Source: Chloroflexota bacterium (GTDB lineage: Bacteria; Chloroflexota; Dehalococcoidia; Lucifugimonadales; Australimonadaceae). From it: a DNA stretch of 38,356 nucleotides. Location of the stretch: contig JAPOOH010000387.1 in the NCBI GenBank assembly GCA_026713505.1, forward strand, positions 1 through 38,356, written 5' to 3'. Under the pieces are notes generated by a model. That model did not search any database and was not told the DNA's origin. It saw only the letters and a list, made by a program, of their open reading frames with translations. Shown here one piece after another: positions 4,619-36,821 of this stretch. How positions within the stretch are numbered: the stretch's first letter is position 1; every line of letters begins with the position of its first letter. The position numbers were made by a program, and so were the translations under genes.

Positions 4619-5614
4619 TCAGGAGCCCTCTTCCTTACTGTAGCTGAGCATCCGGTGAAGCCGCGCTGCGATACCTGCCCGGTCCGGAACGAACGCTCGT
4701 TCCAACTTCGGACTCGCGGGCGGAGGGGTGTACGGCGCGCCGATACGAAGGACCGGCGCGTCAAGGTAGTCCATCGCCATCTCCTGCACGCGCGCTGCTA
4801 TCTCTGCCCCCAAGCCCCCTTGCACCACAGCCTCATGGGCCACCGCCAGCCGGTTGGTCTTGCGAACGGACTCGATGACCGTGTCGATGTCCAGTGGCAC
4901 GAGGCTGCGCAGGTCAATCACCTCTACAGAGATGCCCTTTCCGGCCAAGTCCTCGGCCGCCTCAAGGCATTCGGTCAGCATCCGTGAGTAGGATACCAAC
5001 GTGATGTCCGAACCCTCTCTCACGATGTGCGCCTTGCCCAATACGGATTCGCCCGGCTCAAGGCCATCGGGATCGTGGCGGAAGTAGAGCCCTCGATGCT
5101 CGATGAAAACGACCGGCGAATCGTCCCGGATGGATGCGCGGATCAGGCGGTTGGCGTCCGCCGCCGACCCGGGAGCCACAGCCTTGAGCCCTGGAACGTG
5201 GGCGAACCACGCTTCGAGACTCTGGGAGTGTTGCGACCCCCAACCTCCTTGAGCACCCTGCTGAACGCGGATCACCATCGGCACCGCGAGTTGCCCACCC
5301 GACATGAAGTGCACCTTCGCTGCATGGTTGACTAGCTGATTCATCGCCAGCGTTATGAAGTCCACAAACATGATTTCAACTATGGGCCGCTTGCCGGCCA
5401 CCGCGGCCCCCACGGCTATCCCCATGATCGTGTCTTCGCTGATGGGTGTATTGATGACGCGCCCGTGGCCAAACTCGTCCACGAGCCCCCGTGTGACGCC
5501 GAATGCCCCCCCCACCGCCACGTCCTCGCCGAGGATCATGACGCGAGGGTCGGCGCGCATCTCCTCAGCGATACCTTCACGAAGCGCGTCCACGAACCGC
5601 AGGTTCGCCATCAC
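4619..5614 (-). CDS. 2-oxoacid dehydrogenase E1 component, beta subunit (first copy)
   Basis: 331-aa ORF with canonical E1-beta motifs: ILGEDVAVGGAFGVTRGLVDEFGHGRVINTPISEDTIMGIAVGAAVAGKRPIVEIMF and VFIEHRGLY. The start is GTG-ATG, 1 nt after the alpha stop. Confidence 0.9.
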   Translation of the reverse strand: MMANLRFVDALREGIAEEMRADPRVMILGEDVAVGGAFGVTRGLVDEFGHGRVINTPISEDTIMGIAVGAAVAGKRPIVEIMFVDFITLAMNQLVNHAAKVHFMSGGQLAVPMVIRVQQGAQGGWGSQHSQSLEAWFAHVPGLKAVAPGSAADANRLIRASIRDDSPVVFIEHRGLYFRHDPDGLEPGESVLGKAHIVREGSDITLVSYSRMLTECLEAAEDLAGKGISVEVIDLRSLVPLDIDTVIESVRKTNRLAVAHEAVVQGGLGAEIAARVQEMAMDYLDAPVLRIGAPYTPPPASPKLERAFVPDRAGIAARLHRMLSYSKEEGS

Positions 5615-5615
5615 A

Positions 5616-6587
5616 CTACCCGAACACCCGCGCCGTCATGGCGTCCATCGAGAGGTACTCGCCCCCCAAGGCGAAGCGGACGGCGTCCTCGACCCGTTCA
5701 TCCGCCTCGCGCTTGACCGTGGAAGCGGCGTCCTCGTCGAGGGCCCTTTCCGACTTGAGCTGTTTCGTCAGTCTCTCGATTGGATCCTTCTCACGCCACT
5801 CCGCGACCTCGTTGGCTTGGCGATACTGGGCAGGGTCGCCGATGTAGTGTCCGCGGAGCCGGTAGGTGAGGCACTCGACCATCGTAGGCCCTTCCCCATT
5901 CCGTGCGTGTTCGACAGCCCTGGACATCGCTTCGAGAACCTCCAACAAGTCGTTACCGTCCACTGTTCGGGCGGGGATGCCATACGGCTTGCAGTGTTCC
6001 GAAACCCGCTCGACGACCGTGTGCTCTGACATCGGAGTGAACTCGGCGTAGCCATTGTTTTCGCAGACGAGGACCACTGGGAGCTTCCACAGGGCTGCGA
6101 TGTTCAGGCTCTCGTGGAACCCACCGGTATTCGCGGCGCCGTCGCCGAAGTACACGGCCACAACCAGCCCCGCGTCCCGGTGGGCCAGGGCGGTGCCCAG
6201 GGCCAGCGGGATCGTGCCGCCCACGATGCCCGTCGCGCCCATCGCTTTGACCTCAGCAGCCACCAGGTGCATCGAGCCGCCGAGTCCCTCGCAGTAGCCG
6301 TTCGCTCTGCCGGCGAGCTCCGCCATCATCTTGTTGATGTCGGCGCCGCGCGCGATGAAATGGCCGTGGGAGCGGTGCGTTCCGTAGAGGTAGTCCCCTT
6401 CCAAGAGGGAGGTCGCAACCGCCACAGCTACCGCCTCCTGGCCGATCCCCACGTGCACGAGTCCGGCGATGTCTCCCCTGTGATAGAGATCGATGACGCG
6501 CTCTTCGAACGCCCGTATCAGCACCATGCGGCGGAGCAGATCGAGCTTGTCTTCAGTCGTGATGTCCATGGTGGAACTCAATGACAT
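5616..6587 (-). CDS. 2-oxoacid dehydrogenase E1 component, alpha subunit (first copy, ThDP-binding)
   Basis: 323-aa ORF with YFGDGAANTGGFHESLNIAALWKLPVVLVCENN (GDG-x26-NN) and THRSHGHFIARG. A GGGAGGA sits immediately upstream of the ATG. Confidence 0.9.
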   Translation of the reverse strand: MSLSSTMDITTEDKLDLLRRMVLIRAFEERVIDLYHRGDIAGLVHVGIGQEAVAVAVATSLLEGDYLYGTHRSHGHFIARGADINKMMAELAGRANGYCEGLGGSMHLVAAEVKAMGATGIVGGTIPLALGTALAHRDAGLVVAVYFGDGAANTGGFHESLNIAALWKLPVVLVCENNGYAEFTPMSEHTVVERVSEHCKPYGIPARTVDGNDLLEVLEAMSRAVEHARNGEGPTMVECLTYRLRGHYIGDPAQYRQANEVAEWREKDPIERLTKQLKSERALDEDAASTVKREADERVEDAVRFALGGEYLSMDAMTARVFG

Positions 6588-6605
6588 TCCTCCCGTGCCG
6601 CTCTT

Positions 6606-7838
6606 TCATTCGAGCTCGGCCGGGTGCTCCAACACCCTCCTTATCTCAGCGGTGAACAGCGCTGCCTCGGCGCCGCTAACCGCGCGGTGGTCCGCCGACA
6701 GGGTTGCGCTCATCATCTTACGTATCTGAACCCCACCGTCGCGTGGCACCGCCGTGTCCTCCACCTCCCCGACGGCGAGCATCGCCACCTGCGGCGACAC
6801 GATGATGGCAGCGAACGCCGAGACGCCGAACATCCCGAGGTTGCTCACGGAGAATGTGCCCGTGTACTCCTCCTGGCGCAGCGACCCAGCTCTGGCACGC
6901 GCGGCGAGGTCTTTCGCAGCTGCGGCGATATCGGCCACGGACTTCCCCTCGCAAGAGGGTATCGCTGGCACTATCAGCCCCTCCTGCAAGGCGACAGCCA
7001 TACCCATGTTCACATGAGGATGCACACGGAGGTGGTCCCCCTCGAATGTTGCGTTAAACGCTGGGTGACGTTCCAGCGCGATCGAACACGCCTTCATCAG
7101 CAGGTCGTTCACGCTGACGCGCTGGTCGGCGGATAGCGGACTGTTCAGCGCGTCTCGCCAAGCCATGGCTTCTGTCATGTCCACGCGGACAGTCACATAG
7201 AAGTGCGGTGCCTCATTGAACGTGGACCGCGTCCTTCGAGCGACAGCCTGGCCCATCTTGCCGATGGGGATTCGACCATCCGGATCAGGCTGCCGGGGCG
7301 ACAGCCCTCCCTGCTCAGTCGGGGTGACAGTGGCAGCGCCAGGATCCGCTACGCGCCGTGTCTCGTCCTCTACGCCGCCGTCATGGAATGCAAGCACGTC
7401 GTCCCGGGTTACCCGGCCCAGGGGGCCCGTTCCTTCCACCAGCGACAAGTCCACCCCCAACTCCGAAGCGAGCCGACGTGCGAGGGGAGACACGAAACGC
7501 CGAGATACTGAGTCCCCGGCTGGAGATGTGGACGGTACCAACAGCCCAGGCCCGGGCGGCAACCTGGGTTCCGCTTCCGTGGCTTCCGGGACTGCCTCGC
7601 CAGGCTCGCCGATGTACGCGATGACCCCGCCTACGGGGACCGCCGTGCCTTCTACAACAAAGATGCGGAGAAGGGAACCGCTGGCAGGGGCCTCAAACTC
7701 AAAGACAGCCTTGTCCGCCTCGATCTCGGCGATCGCCTCGCCCTGGGCGACGCCATCACCCTCATGCTTCAGCCAGGAGACGACCGTCCCCTTTTCCATG
7801 TCGTACCCCATCCGGGGCATCGCGACTACTGTGGCCAT
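6606..7838 (-). CDS. Dihydrolipoamide acyltransferase (E2 core of a 2-oxoacid dehydrogenase complex)
   Basis: 410-aa ORF. It has a single N-terminal lipoyl domain (EIEADKAVFEFEAP, lipoyl-Lys K43 at nt 7710-7712), a Pro/Ala linker and a peripheral-subunit-binding domain (SPLARRLASELGVDLSLVEGTGPLGRVTRDDV). The catalytic domain carries GTFSVSNLGMFG and SADHRAVSGAEAA. Confidence 0.9.
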   Translation of the reverse strand: MATVVAMPRMGYDMEKGTVVSWLKHEGDGVAQGEAIAEIEADKAVFEFEAPASGSLLRIFVVEGTAVPVGGVIAYIGEPGEAVPEATEAEPRLPPGPGLLVPSTSPAGDSVSRRFVSPLARRLASELGVDLSLVEGTGPLGRVTRDDVLAFHDGGVEDETRRVADPGAATVTPTEQGGLSPRQPDPDGRIPIGKMGQAVARRTRSTFNEAPHFYVTVRVDMTEAMAWRDALNSPLSADQRVSVNDLLMKACSIALERHPAFNATFEGDHLRVHPHVNMGMAVALQEGLIVPAIPSCEGKSVADIAAAAKDLAARARAGSLRQEEYTGTFSVSNLGMFGVSAFAAIIVSPQVAMLAVGEVEDTAVPRDGGVQIRKMMSATLSADHRAVSGAEAALFTAEIRRVLEHPAELE

Positions 7839-30840: not shown

Positions 30841-30915
30841 TGGCACCCCCGGGGAGACTCGAACTCCCGCCACCGGCTCCGGAGGCCGGTGCTCTATCCA
30901 CTGAGCTACGGGGGC
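30841..30915 (-). tRNA. tRNA-Arg: tRNA-Arg (anticodon CCG), CCA encoded
   Basis: The reverse complement folds as a cloverleaf: GCCCCCG TA GCTC AGTGGATA GAGC A CCGGC CTCCGGA GCCGG TGGC GGGAG TTCGAGT CTCCC CGGGGGT G CCA. The acceptor stem is 7 bp (with a G1-U pair), T33 and G37 flank the anticodon CCG, and the T-loop is TTCGAGT. Confidence 0.95.
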
Positions 30916-30951: not shown

Positions 30952-31149
30952 CTCATCGGACGTCTACTCCAACGCTCGCCGAACTTCATCCAGTTTGAGG
31001 AGCCCTCCACCGTGCGTACACAAGGCATTGTCAGCAACGTTGGCGTATCGCTCGATGGGGCGTGATGGTGTATGCTTACACGGAGCGCTCCGAGAGAGCG
31101 CCGGAATCAGCCATGCACCGAAGCGGCTGTACAAGCGCGTCGAAAACTA

Positions 31150-31178
31150 TTGACCTGCGTTTGCCGCCTCACTATGAT
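31150..31178 (+). promoter_or_regulatory. Candidate sigma70-type promoter for the collagen-like lipoprotein gene
   Basis: TTGACC (31150-31155), 17-nt spacer, TATGAT (31173-31178). It lies about 100 nt upstream of ATG 31278. Confidence 0.45.
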
Positions 31179-31277
31179 TCATGGCGATTGTTCGTAAAGG
31201 ACTTGATGGTGGTGGGCTTCACAGGAGAGAAGCTGACCTCCAGATGGCCACCTCGTACGATTTGGAAAGGGGGTTCG

Positions 31278-31820
31278 ATGAACCGCTTCAGCCTCAAGAG
31301 CATGTCCCTGGTACTCCTCGTGGCAATCTTCGGTCTGGTGTTGGCCGCATGCACGGGTCCTGATGGCCCCGCTGGCCCCGCTGGCGCTGCTGGCGCTGCT
31401 GGCCCTGCTGGCCCACAAGGCCCTGCCGGTGCAGACGGTGCAGACGGTGCAGACGGTGCCGCTGGTGCGGATGGTAGCCCCGGTGCTCCCGGTGCTCCCG
31501 GTGCTCCCGGTATTCCCGGCGTCCCGGGCGTTGACGGCGACTCGTCCACTGCGGGCGTTGAGCTTATGCGCAACAACTTCTCGGCTGACCTGCCAGTCAG
31601 CACGACTGCCGTGCTAACCGGCTTCGAGCCCGGCGAGAACGTCGAAGTAACCCTTATGGCCGGCGACGGCAGTTCGACATCGCTTGGTTCAGCAACCGCG
31701 AATGACGGTGGAATAGCGGACGTCGATGTCAGGCACGACGGCTTGGCCGCAGGCACGTACGCGGTCGAGGCTGTCGGCGACGGCGGTGGCAAGGCCAGCG
31801 CCGCGATCTTCGTCAAGTAA
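31278..31820 (+). CDS. Collagen-like triple-helix-repeat lipoprotein
   Basis: The ORF-track start at 31062 is an implausible extension. ATG 31278 has GGAAAGGGGG upstream and gives MNRFSLKSMSLVLLVAIFGLVLAAC (signal peptide plus lipobox LAAC). Then come 21 uninterrupted G-X-Y triplets and a C-terminal domain of about 90 aa (VELMRNNFSADLPVSTTAVLTGFEPGENVEVTLMAGDG...YAVEAVGDGGGKASAAIFVK). Confidence 0.8.
   Translation: MNRFSLKSMSLVLLVAIFGLVLAACTGPDGPAGPAGAAGAAGPAGPQGPAGADGADGADGAAGADGSPGAPGAPGAPGIPGVPGVDGDSSTAGVELMRNNFSADLPVSTTAVLTGFEPGENVEVTLMAGDGSSTSLGSATANDGGIADVDVRHDGLAAGTYAVEAVGDGGGKASAAIFVK
31356..31544 (+). repeat. Coding tandem repeat (G-X-Y triplets; 9-bp DNA units)
   Basis: The protein reads GPD GPA GPA GAA GAA GPA GPQ GPA GAD GAD GAD GAA GAD GSP GAP GAP GAP GIP GVP GVD GDS. 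At the DNA level there are perfect 9-bp triplications: GGTGCAGAC x3 (31428-31454) and GGTGCTCCC x3 (31482-31508). Confidence 0.9.
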
Positions 31821-32007: not shown

Positions 32008-32385
32008 CTACAAGACTCGAGCGGCTGCATAGCCGACTGCGACAGCGGCGAGGCCGAGAGCGACGGTGAGGAGGACGTTCGCGGCGGCGGAGAGGTACGC
32101 GGCGTTGCGCAGGAGGGTAAGGGTGTCGTTGGTTATAGCGGAGAAGGTGGTGAACCCGCCGAGCACGCCGACGAACAGGAAGAGCCGCGCACCCGGTCCG
32201 AAGAGCTGGCGCGTCTCCGCGAGTCCCGCGAGGACGCCGATGAGCAGCGAGCCAACCACGTTGACGGTAAGCACTCCCCAGGGGAAAGACGGCTGGCCGG
32301 CAAGGCGCGACACGCCGAGGATGACGCCGTAGCGTGTCGCAGCCCCGATGAAGCCGCCCATGCCGACGAGGAGAAGGTCAGTCAT
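32008..32385 (-). CDS. crcB: Fluoride ion channel CrcB/Fluc
   Basis: The ORF-track start at 32586 adds an Arg/Ser/Thr-rich non-protein-like extension. ATG 32385 gives a 125-aa protein, MTDLLLVGMGGFIGAATRYG ... GGFTTFSAI, with four TM segments. Confidence 0.9.
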   Translation of the reverse strand: MTDLLLVGMGGFIGAATRYGVILGVSRLAGQPSFPWGVLTVNVVGSLLIGVLAGLAETRQLFGPGARLFLFVGVLGGFTTFSAITNDTLTLLRNAAYLSAAANVLLTVALGLAAVAVGYAAARVL

Positions 32386-32860
32386 GGCCGCGGGGCTGGG
32401 TCCTGCGGAACGTGAGCGGATCGTGCTGCTCGCTGCCGTAGAAACGGAGCCAGAAGTCGCTCTTGCCGGGGAAGTCCATGTAGAGGCCGAGGTGCGCCCC
32501 CCCGAGGACGTGGAGGTGGCCGTGCGGCTGAGACTGCATCGCGTCAACACCGAAGTTGGAGACGATGCGGAATCCGCTGGGCGCATCGGACTCGCCGAGT
32601 TGCACGGCGAGTTGAGCCGCGCGGGGGAAGAGTGTCGAGTGCCAGAACTCGCGCTGGCTCATGTGCATGACGGGCGCGACGAGATACATGATCGGCGCCC
32701 AGTCCAATGCGTTTTCGAATGCGATGAGCTCGTCATCCTGGTAGCGGATGCGCCGGGGGAGTGCGCCCGAGGCGATGCCGCAGAAGGCACACTCGCCGGT
32801 TGTGTCGTTGGAGTACGCCGCGTCCGCGCGCGCGGCGCTGGCGTCGCCAGCCTCAGACAT
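32378..32860 (-). CDS. HIT-family (histidine triad, Hint-like) nucleotide hydrolase
   Basis: ATG 32860 gives a 160-aa protein with CAFCGI (CxxC) and the histidine triad PHGHLHVLGG. Its start overlaps the upstream stop as ATGTCTGA, and its stop overlaps the crcB start as ATGACTGA. Confidence 0.85.
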   Translation of the reverse strand: MSEAGDASAARADAAYSNDTTGECAFCGIASGALPRRIRYQDDELIAFENALDWAPIMYLVAPVMHMSQREFWHSTLFPRAAQLAVQLGESDAPSGFRIVSNFGVDAMQSQPHGHLHVLGGAHLGLYMDFPGKSDFWLRFYGSEQHDPLTFRRTQPRGHD

Positions 32861-34265
32861 CGCGGCGGCGTTCCTGCCGGACGCGTCCGGTCTGGCGGTA
32901 GTCCGGTGCTGTGATGGGCACCTCTGTGACCATCCGTGCGTCGTTGAGGCGCGAGGCGACGGGGTCAGACGGGCCGGACGGGAGGGCGCGCATGGTGATG
33001 ATGGTGGGAAGCCGGGCATTATGCCGGTGGACGATGATCTGGTAGAGCTTCTCGTCCGCCCATGCGGTGGAACTCTCGGAGCCGAGATCGTCCATGATGA
33101 GCAGAGGTGCCTGCTTGATGCGATCGAAGAGCTCGTCGTAGGTGACGCGGCTGTCCGGACTGAACGTGTAGCGGAGGTGGTCCAGCAGGTCGGGCACGAA
33201 GGCGAAAAAGACATCGCCTCCCTGTTCGATGTGCCGGTTGGCAACCGCGACGGCGAGGTGCGTCTTGCCGCAGCCGGGGCCTCCCACGAGAACGAGCCAG
33301 CCCTCCGGCCCCTGCGAGAAGGCGCGCGAGGCATGGAGCGCAGCAGCGAGCGTCTCCCTGTCCACCCTGGTGCGAGCGCGCCCTTCCGGTTGGAAGGAGT
33401 CGAATGTCATCTCCCGGAGCATCGCGTGGGGTATGCCTCCAAGACTCACGGTCCTTGCGGCGGAAGCGCCCCCCATGTCTATGACGAGCGCGTTGCGCGG
33501 GTCGGTCAGCTTGCTCTGTAGGCGTCCGTCCAGCCGTTCCAGCGGAACGGAGGATGTGAGGATGGTCGGAAGGCCATTCAGGTAGCGGTGATTGACAACC
33601 TGGAAGAGCTTCTCCTCAGCCCAGGGCGTGCCGTTGTGTGCGCCGATGTCGTCCAGGATGAGAACCGGGACGTTCTTGACCTGCTCGAACAGCTCATCGT
33701 GAGAGAGCTCAGCGTCGTCGGCATACCCGCCCCGGAGTTGGTCGAGGAGGTCCGGGACGAAAGTGAAGAGGACGGGGTGGCCCTGCAGCATGAGGCGATT
33801 GGCGGCGGCGGCGGCGAGGCAGGTCTTGCCGGTGCCGTGGCCGCCGGTGAGCAGCAGTGAGCCTATGGGCTGTTCGGCGAAGGACTGCGCCGCGCGGAAT
33901 GCGGCGTCGTAGCGGGCGTTCGCTTCGGGGCCAACGCCGGGACCGCTAGTGGCCAACGTCTCAAACGTGACGGCGTGCAGCACGCCGAGGTTGCTGTAGC
34001 GCTGGAGCCGCGTGAGGCGGTCGGTCTCGCTGCGGCGCACCTGGCAAAGGCACGGGAAGGCGCGCCCGAAGTCCGGGTGGCCGACTGGCACGTCGCGGCG
34101 CACCCAGCCCTGTCCCCCGCAGGTGGGGCACACGTCGACAACCGCGGACTCTGCGTCGAGCTGCTGCACCCAGTCAGGAACGGCGGCGACGTTCGAGAAG
34201 TTCCGCTGCTGTAAGCGCCTCAGTATGTCTCCCAGGCTTTCCACTCTGCCTCGTGCCCTTCCCAT
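32853..34265 (-). CDS. Helicase-loader-like protein with a 4-Cys element and two tandem DnaC/DnaI/IstB-type AAA+ modules
   Basis: The ORF is open to 34343, and the start is uncertain: ATG 34265 (GGAAG upstream), GTG 34244 or GTG 34169. It has CPTCGG-x20-FPCLC. Module 1 has Walker A GGHGTGKT (33822-33845) and Walker B VLILDDIG. Module 2 has Walker A GGPGCGKT (33261-33284) and Walker B LLIMDDLG. Confidence 0.8.
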   Translation of the reverse strand: MGRARGRVESLGDILRRLQQRNFSNVAAVPDWVQQLDAESAVVDVCPTCGGQGWVRRDVPVGHPDFGRAFPCLCQVRRSETDRLTRLQRYSNLGVLHAVTFETLATSGPGVGPEANARYDAAFRAAQSFAEQPIGSLLLTGGHGTGKTCLAAAAANRLMLQGHPVLFTFVPDLLDQLRGGYADDAELSHDELFEQVKNVPVLILDDIGAHNGTPWAEEKLFQVVNHRYLNGLPTILTSSVPLERLDGRLQSKLTDPRNALVIDMGGASAARTVSLGGIPHAMLREMTFDSFQPEGRARTRVDRETLAAALHASRAFSQGPEGWLVLVGGPGCGKTHLAVAVANRHIEQGGDVFFAFVPDLLDHLRYTFSPDSRVTYDELFDRIKQAPLLIMDDLGSESSTAWADEKLYQIIVHRHNARLPTIITMRALPSGPSDPVASRLNDARMVTEVPITAPDYRQTGRVRQERRRDV

Positions 34266-34827
34266 CTCGCTTCCAGCGCTCAAGCACTGCTCCGATGTAG
34301 CGCCAACTGCGAGCGTTGGCCGCAACCGCCTCGTGGACCGCATCCTCCACCCACCCGGAGGGGTACTCCTCCTCGGCGGCGCGGAGTTCGTCGGCGACCA
34401 ACGGAGTCAGCATACCAATGTTCTCTTCGTAGAGCCGAAAGACGTTCGGGCGTTCGGATGGACGTCCAACCGCCACGTGCCCCGGAGCGGAACCGAACCG
34501 CCCGGCGGCGCGTTCATTCTGAGGCGTGCGTAGCAACAGCCATCCTGCGGATTCGATGAGTGTACCTCGCTCCACGGCGAGCGCGATGCCGCGTTCGATC
34601 TCATCCGCTGAACCGATGGCATCGAGCAGGACGGCATCCGCCCGCAGTGTAGAGACGGGCACGCGTTTCGGTGCGCCGCTCTGCTGGGCCTCGTGCCAGA
34701 GAAAGCGCAGCGTGCACTTCAACTCGGCGCAGTCGGCTATGTCGACCAGGAGGGACGACAGCAGGGACGCAGGCACCGGCAAACGCTTCGCGTCGGCGTC
34801 GAACCCGGTGAATACTGAGGCGGTCAC
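34174..34827 (-). CDS. DnaD-domain (DnaB_2 / replisome-organizer-like) protein
   Basis: 217-aa ORF whose GTG start overlaps the dnaB stop (GTGA). The C-terminal half matches the DnaD-like pattern: NVFRLYEENIGMLTPLVADELRAAEEEYPSGWVEDAVHEAVAANARSWRYIGAVLERWKRDG. Confidence 0.7.
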   Translation of the reverse strand: MTASVFTGFDADAKRLPVPASLLSSLLVDIADCAELKCTLRFLWHEAQQSGAPKRVPVSTLRADAVLLDAIGSADEIERGIALAVERGTLIESAGWLLLRTPQNERAAGRFGSAPGHVAVGRPSERPNVFRLYEENIGMLTPLVADELRAAEEEYPSGWVEDAVHEAVAANARSWRYIGAVLERWKRDGKGTRQSGKPGRHTEALTAAELLERRRRS

Positions 34828-36188
34828 AGGACCGCCGTTTCGGTCGCGAGGTTGAGGAAGCGCGAGAACTTGCCGTCGAAGAAGAGATGGATGGTGCGGG
34901 TGGGACCGTGGCGGTTCTTTGCGATGACGAGCTGCGCGAGATTCTCCGGGTACGGGTCAGTTGGATGCCGCGACTCCCACTGCTCGGGCGACATGTACTT
35001 GTCGTCACGGTGGATGAAGGCCACAACGTCGGCGTCTTGTTCGATGCTGCCGGACTCGCGCAGGTCGGAAAGTTGGGGATGGTGGTCGGGGCGTTGTTCG
35101 ATTGCGCGGGAGAGCTGGGAGATGGCGATGACCGGGACGTTGAGGTCTCGGGCGATCGCCTTGAGCTGCCTTGTGATGTCGCTCAGCTCCTGAACGCGGT
35201 TCTCGCCACGGTTCTCGCGCCCGGAGATGAGCTGGAGGTAGTCGACTATGACGATGTCGATGCTCCTGCCGGTGTGGAGGCGACGGAGCTTGGAGCGCAT
35301 CTCCAGGACGGTCTGCGCGGGGGAGTCGTCCATGGAGATGGCGAGATCGGACAACTCACCGATGCCGTGTATGACACGGGCCTGGGCGGTATCGCCGAGG
35401 AGGCCGATGCGCAGGAGGTGGCTGTCCACTTCGGCCTCGGCGGAGAGCAGACGGAGTGCAAGTTGCTCGCGGCTCATCTCCAGGCTGACCACGGCGGCGA
35501 CTGCGCCTTGCCCCGCCGCGTTCCGGGCGATGTTCATGGCGAGAGTCGACTTGCCGAGCGCGGGACGCGCGGCGAGGATGAAGAGGTCGCCGCGCTGCAG
35601 GCGTCCCAGGGCGTTGTCGAGGTCGATGAAGCCGGTGGGGATGGGCGCAACGCCGTGGTCCAGCGGCGCCGTATCGGACGCCTCTTCGAGGTACTGGTCC
35701 AGCACCTCGCGAATCATCACGAAGTCGCGTGTAACGTGCGTGTTGCGGACGCGGAAGAGGATGTCCTCGGCCCGCTCGAGCGCCTGGTTCGTGTCGGGCG
35801 AGTCCTCGTAACCGATGGCGGCGATGTCGCCTGCGGCTTGGATAAGCCGGCGCATGGTAGCGGTACGATTGACGATTCGCGCGAAGTGCTCCGCGTGGAC
35901 CGAGGTGGGAACGGCGGCGATGACATGGCTGAGGTAACCGGGGCCCCCGACCTCTTCCAGCCGCTCCCTGAGCGAGAGCTCGCGGGCGACGCTGATCTGG
36001 TCAATGGGTTCGCCGCGGTGGTAGAGCGACTGGCAGGCCTCGTAGCACCAGCGGTTGCGCTCGCGATAGAAGTCGTCCACGTTCACGAGCGGGGCTATGC
36101 GGTTTATCACCTCCCCGTCTATAAGGAGTGAGCCGATGACCGCTTCTTCTGCGTCCGCATCATGGGGTGGAAGCTTCTCCGCATACAT
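34824..36188 (-). CDS. dnaB: Replicative DNA helicase DnaB
   Basis: 454-aa ORF with PPHDADAEEAVIGSLLIDG at the N-terminus, Walker A ARPALGKST, Walker B IVIVDYLQL and SQLSRAIEQR. No intein is present. GAGGAAGG lies directly upstream, 12 nt after the rplI stop. Confidence 0.95.
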   Translation of the reverse strand: MYAEKLPPHDADAEEAVIGSLLIDGEVINRIAPLVNVDDFYRERNRWCYEACQSLYHRGEPIDQISVARELSLRERLEEVGGPGYLSHVIAAVPTSVHAEHFARIVNRTATMRRLIQAAGDIAAIGYEDSPDTNQALERAEDILFRVRNTHVTRDFVMIREVLDQYLEEASDTAPLDHGVAPIPTGFIDLDNALGRLQRGDLFILAARPALGKSTLAMNIARNAAGQGAVAAVVSLEMSREQLALRLLSAEAEVDSHLLRIGLLGDTAQARVIHGIGELSDLAISMDDSPAQTVLEMRSKLRRLHTGRSIDIVIVDYLQLISGRENRGENRVQELSDITRQLKAIARDLNVPVIAISQLSRAIEQRPDHHPQLSDLRESGSIEQDADVVAFIHRDDKYMSPEQWESRHPTDPYPENLAQLVIAKNRHGPTRTIHLFFDGKFSRFLNLATETAVL

Positions 36189-36200
36189 CCTTCCTCGTTC

Positions 36201-36821
36201 CTACGGCTCCTCTTCCTCTCCGGTTATGCCGTCCCCGGGCTCGTCTTCGTCTTCTTCATAGTCGTCGTCGGGGGACTGGTCTTCTTCTTCGTAGTCGTCG
36301 TAGGCTGTCTCTTCCGCTTCCGCAGTGTCGCCGCCTTCTTCCGTGTCGGCGGCTTCGGTCCGGGCAGCCTCGTAGCCTTCCGGCACGACGGAAACGGTCA
36401 CCTCGGCGGTGACCTCGCGGTAGAGGCGAATGCTGACAGGGTAGTCGCCGGGCTCGTGGATCGCGCTGCCGAGCAGCACCTGGCGGTGGTCTATGGAGCG
36501 GCCTGTCGCGGCGGAGAGCCGGTCCGCGATGTGGCGTCCGGTGACGGAGCCGAAGAGGCGTCCGTTGGGACCCACACGCACCTCCACGGGCACCTGGGTG
36601 CCTTCGATCAGCGCGGCAACCTCTCCCCATTCCTCGGAGAACTGGAGACGCTTCTGCCGGGCCGCTGCTTCGATGGCGCGTATCCGCTGCAACTGCCCCG
36701 GAGTAGCCGGAGCGGCAAGCCCCTTGGGCAGCAGGTAGTTCCGGGCGAACCCGTTCTTCACTTCTTTGACCTCACCTGCATCAGCAGCTCCGGCCACGTC
36801 TTCGAGAAAGATGACTTTCAT
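36201..36821 (-). CDS. rplI: 50S ribosomal protein L9 with acidic C-terminal extension
   Basis: ATG 36821 gives MKVIFLEDVAGAADAGEVKEVKNGFARNYLLPKGLA (canonical L9 N-domain). The canonical length ends near aa 149 and is followed by a D/E-rich tail of about 57 aa. The conserved rplI-dnaB synteny is present. Confidence 0.9.
   Translation of the reverse strand: MKVIFLEDVAGAADAGEVKEVKNGFARNYLLPKGLAAPATPGQLQRIRAIEAAARQKRLQFSEEWGEVAALIEGTQVPVEVRVGPNGRLFGSVTGRHIADRLSAATGRSIDHRQVLLGSAIHEPGDYPVSIRLYREVTAEVTVSVVPEGYEAARTEAADTEEGGDTAEAEETAYDDYEEEDQSPDDDYEEDEDEPGDGITGEEEEP

Follow-up and report, generated by a model that had tools for sequence, protein, structure and literature searches.

How is a replicative helicase loaded when its presumed loader carries two ATPase modules in one polypeptide chain? 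What is known of helicase loading comes from E. coli DnaC, Bacillus DnaI, phage lambda P and, recently, DciA, and to our knowledge these studied loaders have at most one loader module per chain. The question is raised by a gene in a 38,356-nucleotide stretch of DNA (the window) from a Chloroflexota bacterium of the Dehalococcoidia (assembly GCA_026713505.1, contig JAPOOH010000387.1, forward strand), in which an uninterrupted, ATG-started open reading frame (ORF) of 496 residues, listed at 32853..34343 on the minus strand, encodes two AAA+ modules behind a 4-Cys element. An earlier note on this DNA had placed the ORF downstream of the helicase gene dnaB, and it does lie there, though two genes downstream, with a dnaD-like gene between. 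We consider it likely that the product is the chromosomal replicative-helicase loader of a Dehalococcoidia bacterium, of DnaC/DnaI type and phage ancestry, in which an ancient tandem duplication of the ATPase module produced a covalent pseudo-dimer. As part of this reading, we infer one near-complete and one degenerate ATP site.

Every motif quoted in the earlier note was located in the ORF, whose residue numbers are used throughout unless the numbering of the 463-residue product is stated: CPTCGG at 72 and FPCLC at 96, GGHGTGKT at 167 and GGPGCGKT at 354, ILDDIG at 229 and IMDDLG at 416, TILTS at 260 and TIITM at 447, LQSKL at 275 and VASRL at 462, and DYR once only, at 481. The true start of the loader is probably not the upstream ATG of the ORF. 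It is more plausibly the GTG at 34244, since GAGG stands 5 nucleotides upstream of it and homologues begin with MESLGDILRRLQ (MESLGDIL) at this position, which gives a product of 463 residues organized as follows.

32853..34244, minus strand: tandem-module helicase-loader gene, GTG start, 463 residues, recognized by domain matches
34194..34244, minus strand: N-terminal amphipathic helix (V/M)ESLGDILRRLQQRNFS, kept in homologues and predicted as a helix
34044..34130, minus strand: 4-Cys element CPTC-x22-CLC, with conserved Cys and two short predicted beta hairpins
33474..33995, minus strand: AAA+ module 1, residues 117-290, matched by profiles, BLASTP and Foldseek
33411..33473, minus strand: inter-module linker GGASAARTVSLGGIPHAMLRE, poorly conserved, with no DYR or sensor II
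32883..33410, minus strand: AAA+ module 2, residues 312-487, matched by profiles, BLASTP and Foldseek

Profile and structure searches agree on the kind of module that is repeated. Pfam IstB_IS21 was the best Pfam match, and the PRK08116, DnaI, IstB and DnaC models of NCBIfam also matched, each in two stretches. At the family level the strongest match was phrog_50, 'DnaC-like helicase loader' (4.7e-81), with a match that begins in the 4-Cys region and continues into the AAA+ module. In the PDB, the top matches to a profile of the family were DnaI (2w58), E. coli DnaC (6qel), DnaI (4m4w) and Aquifex aeolicus DnaC (3ec2), followed by IstB and DnaA, and Foldseek of single modules returned 3ecc (TM-score 0.76), 2w58, 8q3w and 5he8, with A. 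aeolicus DnaC, DnaI and IstB among the matches. The loader-type nature claimed for the modules was thus borne out by both approaches. Assignment to a named family is less direct: the DnaI equivalog NF006505 scored 134 bits against a cut-off of 228 and the E. coli-type DnaC equivalog NF005931 108 bits against 357. PRK08116 reached 226 bits, above its cut-off of 189, but this score is the sum of two stretches, and the family, of unnamed DnaC-like proteins entered as 'hypothetical protein', implies no function. In the AlphaFold2 model of the whole protein, with a predicted local distance difference test score (pLDDT) of 83, two alpha/beta modules are confidently predicted and the linker between them is disordered (pLDDT <50 at residues 260-266 of the 463-residue model).

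The two modules are copies of each other. All of their paired motifs are separated by exactly 187 residues, and a gapless comparison of residues 126-296 with 313-483 gave 66 identities in 171 positions, whereas none of 2000 shuffles exceeded 23 (mean 11.5). BLASTP of module against module found 44% identity over 149 residues (E=8e-42), with two 5-residue gaps that offset each other in the variable part ahead of Walker A. The two-stretch profile matches and the constant offset confirm two loader-type AAA+ modules in one ORF, and the gapless alignment of about 170 residues noticed earlier stands far above chance.

Copies they may be, but equivalent they are not. The residues that matter have been mapped in E. 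coli DnaC (PMC8213410): Walker A K112, Walker B E170, sensor I N203, the Arg-coupler R216, the Arg finger R220, sensor II R237 and a tetrad contacting single-stranded DNA (ssDNA), K143/F146/S177/Y179. Their counterparts in the loader are given below, with conservation taken from 222 first and 233 second modules aligned by hmmalign to a gapless seed; a MAFFT alignment of all 489 modules was too gappy for reading columns.

33822..33845, minus strand: module 1 Walker A GGHGTGKT (K173), Lys in 222/222 first modules
33261..33284, minus strand: module 2 Walker A GGPGCGKT (K360), Lys in 233/233 second modules
33648..33653, minus strand: module 1 Walker B DD (D231, D232), D231 in 222/222 and D232 in 203/222
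33087..33092, minus strand: module 2 Walker B DD (D418, D419), first Asp in 230/233
33549..33557, minus strand: module 1 sensor I position TSS (S265; Asn in canonical loaders), Asn in 33% of first modules
32988..32996, minus strand: module 2 sensor I position TMR (R452, not Asn), Arg in 45%, Asn in 6%
33510..33524, minus strand: module 1 box VII RLQSK, R274 the Arg-coupler equivalent, K278 at the Arg-finger position
32949..32963, minus strand: module 2 box VII PVASR, Pro461 at the coupler position, Arg finger R465
32895..32903, minus strand: module 2 sensor II DYR (R483), equivalent to E. coli DnaC D234-Y236-R237

Both modules keep the nucleotide-binding motifs, while the residues around them are divided. 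Among first modules, 87% have Arg at the R274 position; at position 278, 79% have Arg and 19% Lys. Among second modules, 94% have Arg at the R465 position, the rest being alignment gaps, and at the coupler position 50% have Pro and 27% Arg. Sensor II, the function assigned to R237 in E. coli DnaC (PMC8213410), is retained by module 2, while module 1 lacks it in every Dehalococcoidia-labelled locus examined. Consequently, the non-equivalence of the modules first read from this one sequence, on the grounds that DYR follows only the second, holds family-wide. The accompanying contrast of LQSKL with VASRL was correct as sequence, but its Lys is lineage-specific, given the predominance of Arg among first modules. 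Both modules also have equivalents of the ssDNA tetrad (R204/R391, Y207/F394, T239/T426 and W241/W428). R204 and W241 are conserved in 97-99% of first modules and R391 and W428 in 96-97% of second modules; Y207/F394 are kept as F/Y and T239/T426 as T/S (92-95%).

The direction of change can be read from single-module relatives that share the N-terminal unit of the loader (P0250, P0252, P0253 and P0255). These proteins have the full canonical set TSN...DERIxSR...APDYR, and for this reason the partition of catalytic residues is best regarded as derived. They also fix the register of box VII, with R274 as coupler and K278/R465 as fingers, because their canonical sequence (LDERIASRMSD) aligns gap-free. 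A register with K278/R465 opposite DnaC R216, obtained in a three-sequence MAFFT alignment and with a HMMER profile, was rejected since the single-module LDERIASRM...APDYR aligns with both modules without gaps. Searches of single modules against the PDB with phmmer ended before box VII and left the register unsettled.

Polarity differs among classes. In Anaerolineae and allied classes, module 1 is canonical at all four catalytic positions (Asn, Arg, Arg and Arg in at least 94%) and it is module 2 that has lost sensor I, the opposite of Dehalococcoidia, where module 1 lacks sensor II. The reversed polarity was seen in Anaerolineae, Caldilineaceae, Ardenticatenaceae and Promineifilaceae (loci L032, L039-L041, L045, L050, L053-L055, L062-L065, L075, L077, L080, L083 and L086).

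Ahead of the modules lies a single N-terminal unit. Its helix region was matched from query residue 1-2 in 55 of 80 genome loci. The helix resembles the N-terminus of E. coli DnaC, MKNVGDLMQRLQKM (KNVGDLMQRLQ against ESLGDILRRLQ in the loader), and its hydrophobic residues have the spacing of those conserved at positions 4, 8 and 11 of DnaI (PMC2673437). We presume that it is the helicase-contact segment, through which DnaB would be touched. Public gene calls often begin the loader downstream (438 or 418 residues), and the conserved helix is then lost. In the 4-Cys element, C72, C75 and C98 are invariant among 56 homologues and C100 is at least 90% conserved (C39, C42, C65 and C67 in the 463-residue numbering); it is presumably a zinc ribbon, with putative metal binding. 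A structure model of the N-terminal 93 residues predicts two helices, two short Cys-bearing hairpins and a long helix. The 4-Cys element described in the earlier note is thus present, and it is conserved. A DnaI-like zinc fold for this domain was tried and found unsupported, as the model had no Foldseek match in the PDB, DnaI-N included.

These features suggest how the protein might work. The N-terminal unit of helix and 4-Cys element would dock on DnaB, and the DnaD-like neighbour may serve as an adaptor or co-loader, by analogy with DnaD/DnaB/DnaI of Bacillus. The two modules would lie side by side like adjacent DnaC protomers, in an alternating array that creates two kinds of ATP site. One would be near-complete and regulated, with the ATP of module 2 approached in trans by R274/K278 of module 1 and in cis by sensor II. 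At the other, the ATP of module 1 would be read by R465 only; this site, having no sensor I, sensor II or coupler, probably serves binding and assembly, mainly keeping the array intact. Each DnaB hexamer would be met by three chains, which bring six modules but no more than three helicase-binding units, and once ssDNA has been engaged the loader would be released through ATP turnover at the complete sites. In its most general form, which we advance tentatively and would not wager on, DnaB could be loaded in Chloroflexota by a covalent module array of three chains, six modules and three contacts, in which structural and catalytic sites strictly alternate, degeneration is class-specific and the number of modules (1-4) is still evolving.

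Several observations weigh against the loader reading or its details. The sensor I Asn is found in neither module, and the finger position of module 1 is here a Lys. The N203A substitution abolishes the ATPase of E. coli DnaC (PMC8213410). With both sensor I Asn gone and Lys at the module 1 finger, even the 'complete' site may hydrolyse ATP poorly. The box VII register relative to E. coli DnaC is ambiguous in automatic alignments and was settled by motif similarity. The predicted template modelling score (pTM) of the AlphaFold2 model is 0.50, so that its confident modules have no defined mutual orientation, and the N-terminal model is without a structural match, as noted above. Four-module loaders encoded beside dnaB (P0024 and P0023, see below) do not divide into a hexamer, and a strict trimer of dimers therefore cannot be universal. 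In favour of the loader role, Brézellec et al. 2016 (PMC5109545) report that the Chloroflexi genomes of their survey carry a single domesticated dna[CI] gene and lack dciA; for the present genome, covered here by the window only, the absence of dciA or of a second loader would be an extension from those genomes.

The undefined orientation leaves room for other architectures. The modules could fold into a closed intramolecular pair, a monomeric or low-number clamp on ssDNA or on a pair of DnaB subunits, with no six-module spiral. A linker of about 20 residues and one N-terminal unit per chain would suit such a pair, and relatives with one, three or four modules indicate that the count is not tied to six. 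However, a closed pair would leave one finger face and one ATP face free, yet R465, R274 and both Walker sites are conserved, so both faces appear to be used; furthermore, the solved assemblies of DnaC, DnaI and IstB are open spirals or larger oligomers. We regard the closed pair as unlikely, and distinctly improbable is a second arrangement, in which the modules stack in two tiers like D1/D2 of p97, NSF and ClpB, with six chains per DnaB hexamer. Whole-chain Foldseek did put p97/VCP and NSF, which have two AAA+ domains per chain, on top, but with root-mean-square deviations of 13-17 Å and TM-scores of at most 0.35, and the likeness is therefore topological only. Both modules belong by sequence and fold to the initiator/loader group, each matching loaders best, which does not support membership of the type II (double-ring) AAA+ proteins, and both retain the residues with which DnaC contacts ssDNA along a single spiral.

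Other functions fare worse. That the protein regulates initiation, as an Hda-like factor or DnaA antagonist, is very improbable. There is weak, sub-threshold similarity to DnaA and Hda AAA+ models and one relative bears the database name 'DnaA', but the scores (Hda 51 against a cut-off of 195, DnaA 61-66 against 344-410) fall far short, loaders are the best matches, the N-terminal helix resembles that of DnaC, and the gene has dnaB and a DnaD-like gene as linked neighbours. This linkage is part of a conserved block.

36201..36821, minus strand: rplI (L9), first gene of the conserved block, Pfam L9_N and L9_C
34824..36188, minus strand: replicative helicase DnaB gene, TIGR00665 at 477 bits, cut-off 385
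34174..34827, minus strand: DnaD-domain protein gene, Pfam DnaB_2 at 1e-7, TIGR01446 at 3e-9, phrog_186 'DnaD-like helicase loader'

The gene order rplI-dnaB-dnaD-like-loader runs on one strand, with HIT and crcB genes downstream, and the same block recurs at 90% identity on a 2.9-Mb contig. Among 76 related loci of several classes with enough upstream sequence, the dnaD-like gene adjoins the loader upstream in 72, dnaB lies within 1.5 kb upstream of it in 66, and in 56 the upstream genes include rplI. Neither transposase nor phage genes were found among the window neighbours or in related loci with listed gene calls, in keeping with the earlier observation that no IS21-type transposase is adjacent. 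The block is a predicted core chromosomal replication operon, and this disfavours both an IstB transposition helper of IS21 type and a prophage replication gene as the identity of the protein. The best Pfam match and the PHROG matches to phage DnaC-like and DnaD-like loader families do speak for such origins. They are opposed by the score against the IstB equivalog NF038214 (133 bits, cut-off 200), by neighbours that are L9, DnaB, HIT and CrcB genes, by the retention of the block in 76 genomes across several classes, and by viral relatives that are single-module and at most 45% identical; as an alternative to a host loader, this identity is hardly credible.

Nucleotide identity between the modules is 54%, and just 39% at third codon positions; the repeat is therefore ancient and not a collapsed or duplicated assembly. 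That the two-module ORF is an artefact of assembly duplication, or of a sequencing error fusing adjacent genes, a general possibility in metagenome assemblies, has next to no likelihood given this divergence and the continuous ORF in hundreds of independent assemblies, complete long-read chromosomes included. The internal duplication, which the earlier note had wished to see verified, is genuine.

How widespread is the architecture? A large protein database holds thousands of relatives, the best 120 of them nearly all 380-490 residues long and from Chloroflexota/Dehalococcoidia metagenome-assembled genomes (MAGs), deposited under names such as 'ATP-binding protein' or 'DnaC'. Searched exhaustively with module 2 alone, representatives of 50%-identity clusters gave 470 clusters below 1e-30, and most of the best 150 had two matched stretches. 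Module counts in 267 surveyed relatives were two in 244, one in 16, three in 5 and four in 2. The best 80 species-representative genomes had exactly two modules in every case, complete chromosomes of 2.4-4.0 Mb among them, and spanned Dehalococcoidia, Anaerolineae, Chloroflexia, Caldilineaceae, Ardenticatenaceae, Promineifilaceae and Tepidiformaceae. The architecture is not a one-off, and judged by these counts the tandem-module protein is the standard predicted loader of Chloroflexota. In contrast, the best 80 viral relatives were all single-module and 23-45% identical. Duplication seems to postdate entry into the cellular lineage, and to have arisen there after domestication.

Module gain is seen repeatedly in the family. 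Three- and four-module loaders are encoded directly downstream of dnaB: P0024 (L003 8001-10484), P0023 (L004 8001-10538 and L005 1644-4181) and P0108 (L006 8001-10385). The four-module P0023 was found in two independent assemblies. Identity among its modules 1-3 is 82-85%, and the extra modules are copies of module 1, which points to a recent re-duplication of that module. In P0024 the four modules are only 41-66% identical, and its expansion is therefore older. In a neighbor-joining tree, first modules of Dehalococcoidia type fell mostly together, with the extra modules of three- and four-module proteins among them. This tree is indecisive on one versus several duplications because canonical modules cluster through shared conservation, and clustering by the unweighted pair group method with arithmetic mean was dominated by outliers.

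Further variants were noted. P0107 and P0108 carry two extra C-terminal repeats of about 70 residues after the last DYR. Single-module relatives with a loader-type N-terminal helix and 4-Cys element are P0196, P0224, P0250, P0252, P0253, P0255, P0261, P0263 and P0266, the last three of which have a low-complexity insert of about 130-300 residues between helix and cysteines. In its precomputed Pfam annotation, P0356 (671 residues) combines the DnaD domain PF07261 with loader domains, by fusion or by a frameshift across the gene overlap. Two loader loci, L028 and L071, belong to MAGs that bear the labels 'Proteobacteria' and 'Acidimicrobiia'. L028 has L9 and dnaB directly upstream and no detectable dnaD-like gene, while L071 has dnaB and the dnaD-like gene on a contig that stops short of any L9. 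An error of binning or labelling seems the likelier explanation, rather than a true presence outside the phylum.

The block itself has peculiarities. The dnaD-like gene and the loader gene share 71 nucleotides in different reading frames (34174..34244, minus strand), at the 3' end of the former and the 5' end of the latter, and in 19 related loci among L007-L086 with both ends matched the overlap was estimated at 62-89 nucleotides (median 68). Beside the four-module loader of L003, dnaB (5433-7259) contains an intein (Pfam Intein_splicing), confirmed in L003 only; in L015, L021, L040, L045, L050 and L055 the match to dnaB is unusually distant from the dnaD-like gene on its upstream side, which may reflect inteins or inserted genes. 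In L9 of the window, about 55 residues at the C-terminus form a strongly acidic extension (...DDYEEEDQSPDDDYEEDEDEPGDGITGEEEEP), encoded in the 3' part of rplI (36201..36365, minus strand). Downstream, a HIT-family gene (32378..32860, minus strand) overlaps the loader stop codon by 8 nucleotides and is followed by crcB (32008..32385, minus strand), a putative fluoride channel; no fluoride riboswitch reached the Rfam gathering score in the whole window, and the Rfam scan showed neither riboswitches nor other RNAs close to the loader gene. The only RNA gene detected in the window was a tRNA-Arg (CCG) at 30841..30915 on the minus strand, and an ORF at 31062..31820 on the plus strand has a hydrophobic N-terminal segment and collagen-like Gly-X-Y repeats (Pfam Collagen, 1e-9).

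Two fused, complementarily degenerate modules would fix the order of ATP sites and halve the helicase-binding units per ATPase module. In homo-oligomers a mutation hits all six sites, which makes site-specific roles hard to dissect. The Chloroflexota protein may therefore be a natural experiment on whether a given DnaC-type site needs to hydrolyse ATP or is there only to keep the spiral together. If the tentative covalent-array reading is true, its stoichiometry and division of labour would be unlike those of any studied bacterial loader, and the protein would offer a natural 'linked-subunit' construct with which to take apart the use of DnaC-type ATP sites. For annotation, it bears on thousands of entries called just 'ATP-binding protein' or 'DnaC', many with a truncated start; for evolution, it offers repeated module gain, to three and to four, and opposite degeneration in sister classes.

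Among known systems, the dna[CI] gene of Chloroflexi described by Brézellec et al. 2016 (PMC5109545) is probably the same gene family. That Chloroflexi carry a dna[CI]-type loader is thus already known; what appears to be new is the tandem layout. The accessible text and supplement of PMC5109545 mention no duplicated ATPase module, and searches of the literature turned up no account of a helicase loader with tandem or duplicated modules, so that the architecture is apparently uncharacterised, as the earlier note supposed. The PHROG matches fit the phage ancestry proposed for this gene. Phage DnaC-like (phrog_50) and DnaD-like (phrog_186) families have the same gene pairing, here set in a core chromosomal block, and the best 80 viral relatives differ from the two-module loader in having a single module and at most 45% identity. 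IstB of IS21/IS5376 (5BQ5, 8Q3W) shares the AAA+ fold and lacks the Arg-coupler (PMC8213410), a feature that box VII of module 2 (DPVASRL) resembles; the differences are that the Chloroflexota protein has no IstA partner, scores below the equivalog cut-off, and is chromosomal and dnaB-linked.

DnaI of Bacillus/Geobacillus (2W58, 4M4W) is the best PDB sequence match. It has a single AAA+ module where the loader has two, and the two proteins are alike in a conserved hydrophobic N-terminal segment and a metal-binding N-terminal region, likely in the case of the loader. The ligands differ, however: Cys67, Cys70, His84 and Cys101 bind zinc in DnaI (PMC2673437), against the CxxC-x22-CxC pattern here. 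DnaI acts with the co-loaders DnaD and DnaB, and the loader gene adjoins a DnaD-domain gene. E. coli DnaC (6QEL/6QEM) shares the initiator-clade AAA+ fold and Walker A and B. Its coupler/finger helix RVMDR corresponds to RLQS[R/K] of module 1, its sensor II, in a C-terminal D-x-Y-R, is shared by module 2 only, and its ssDNA tetrad has equivalents in both modules. It differs in having one module per chain, a sensor I Asn that neither module keeps, catalytic residues that are not split between modules, and no 4-Cys element after the N-terminal helix. The closest likeness in working, and not in membership, is with ORC/Cdc6, RFC and the bacterial clamp loaders, in which AAA+ neighbours are non-identical and only some interfaces are fully catalytic. 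In those assemblies the neighbours are separate polypeptides of other AAA+ clades, whereas here the asymmetry would arise within one chain through tandem duplication.

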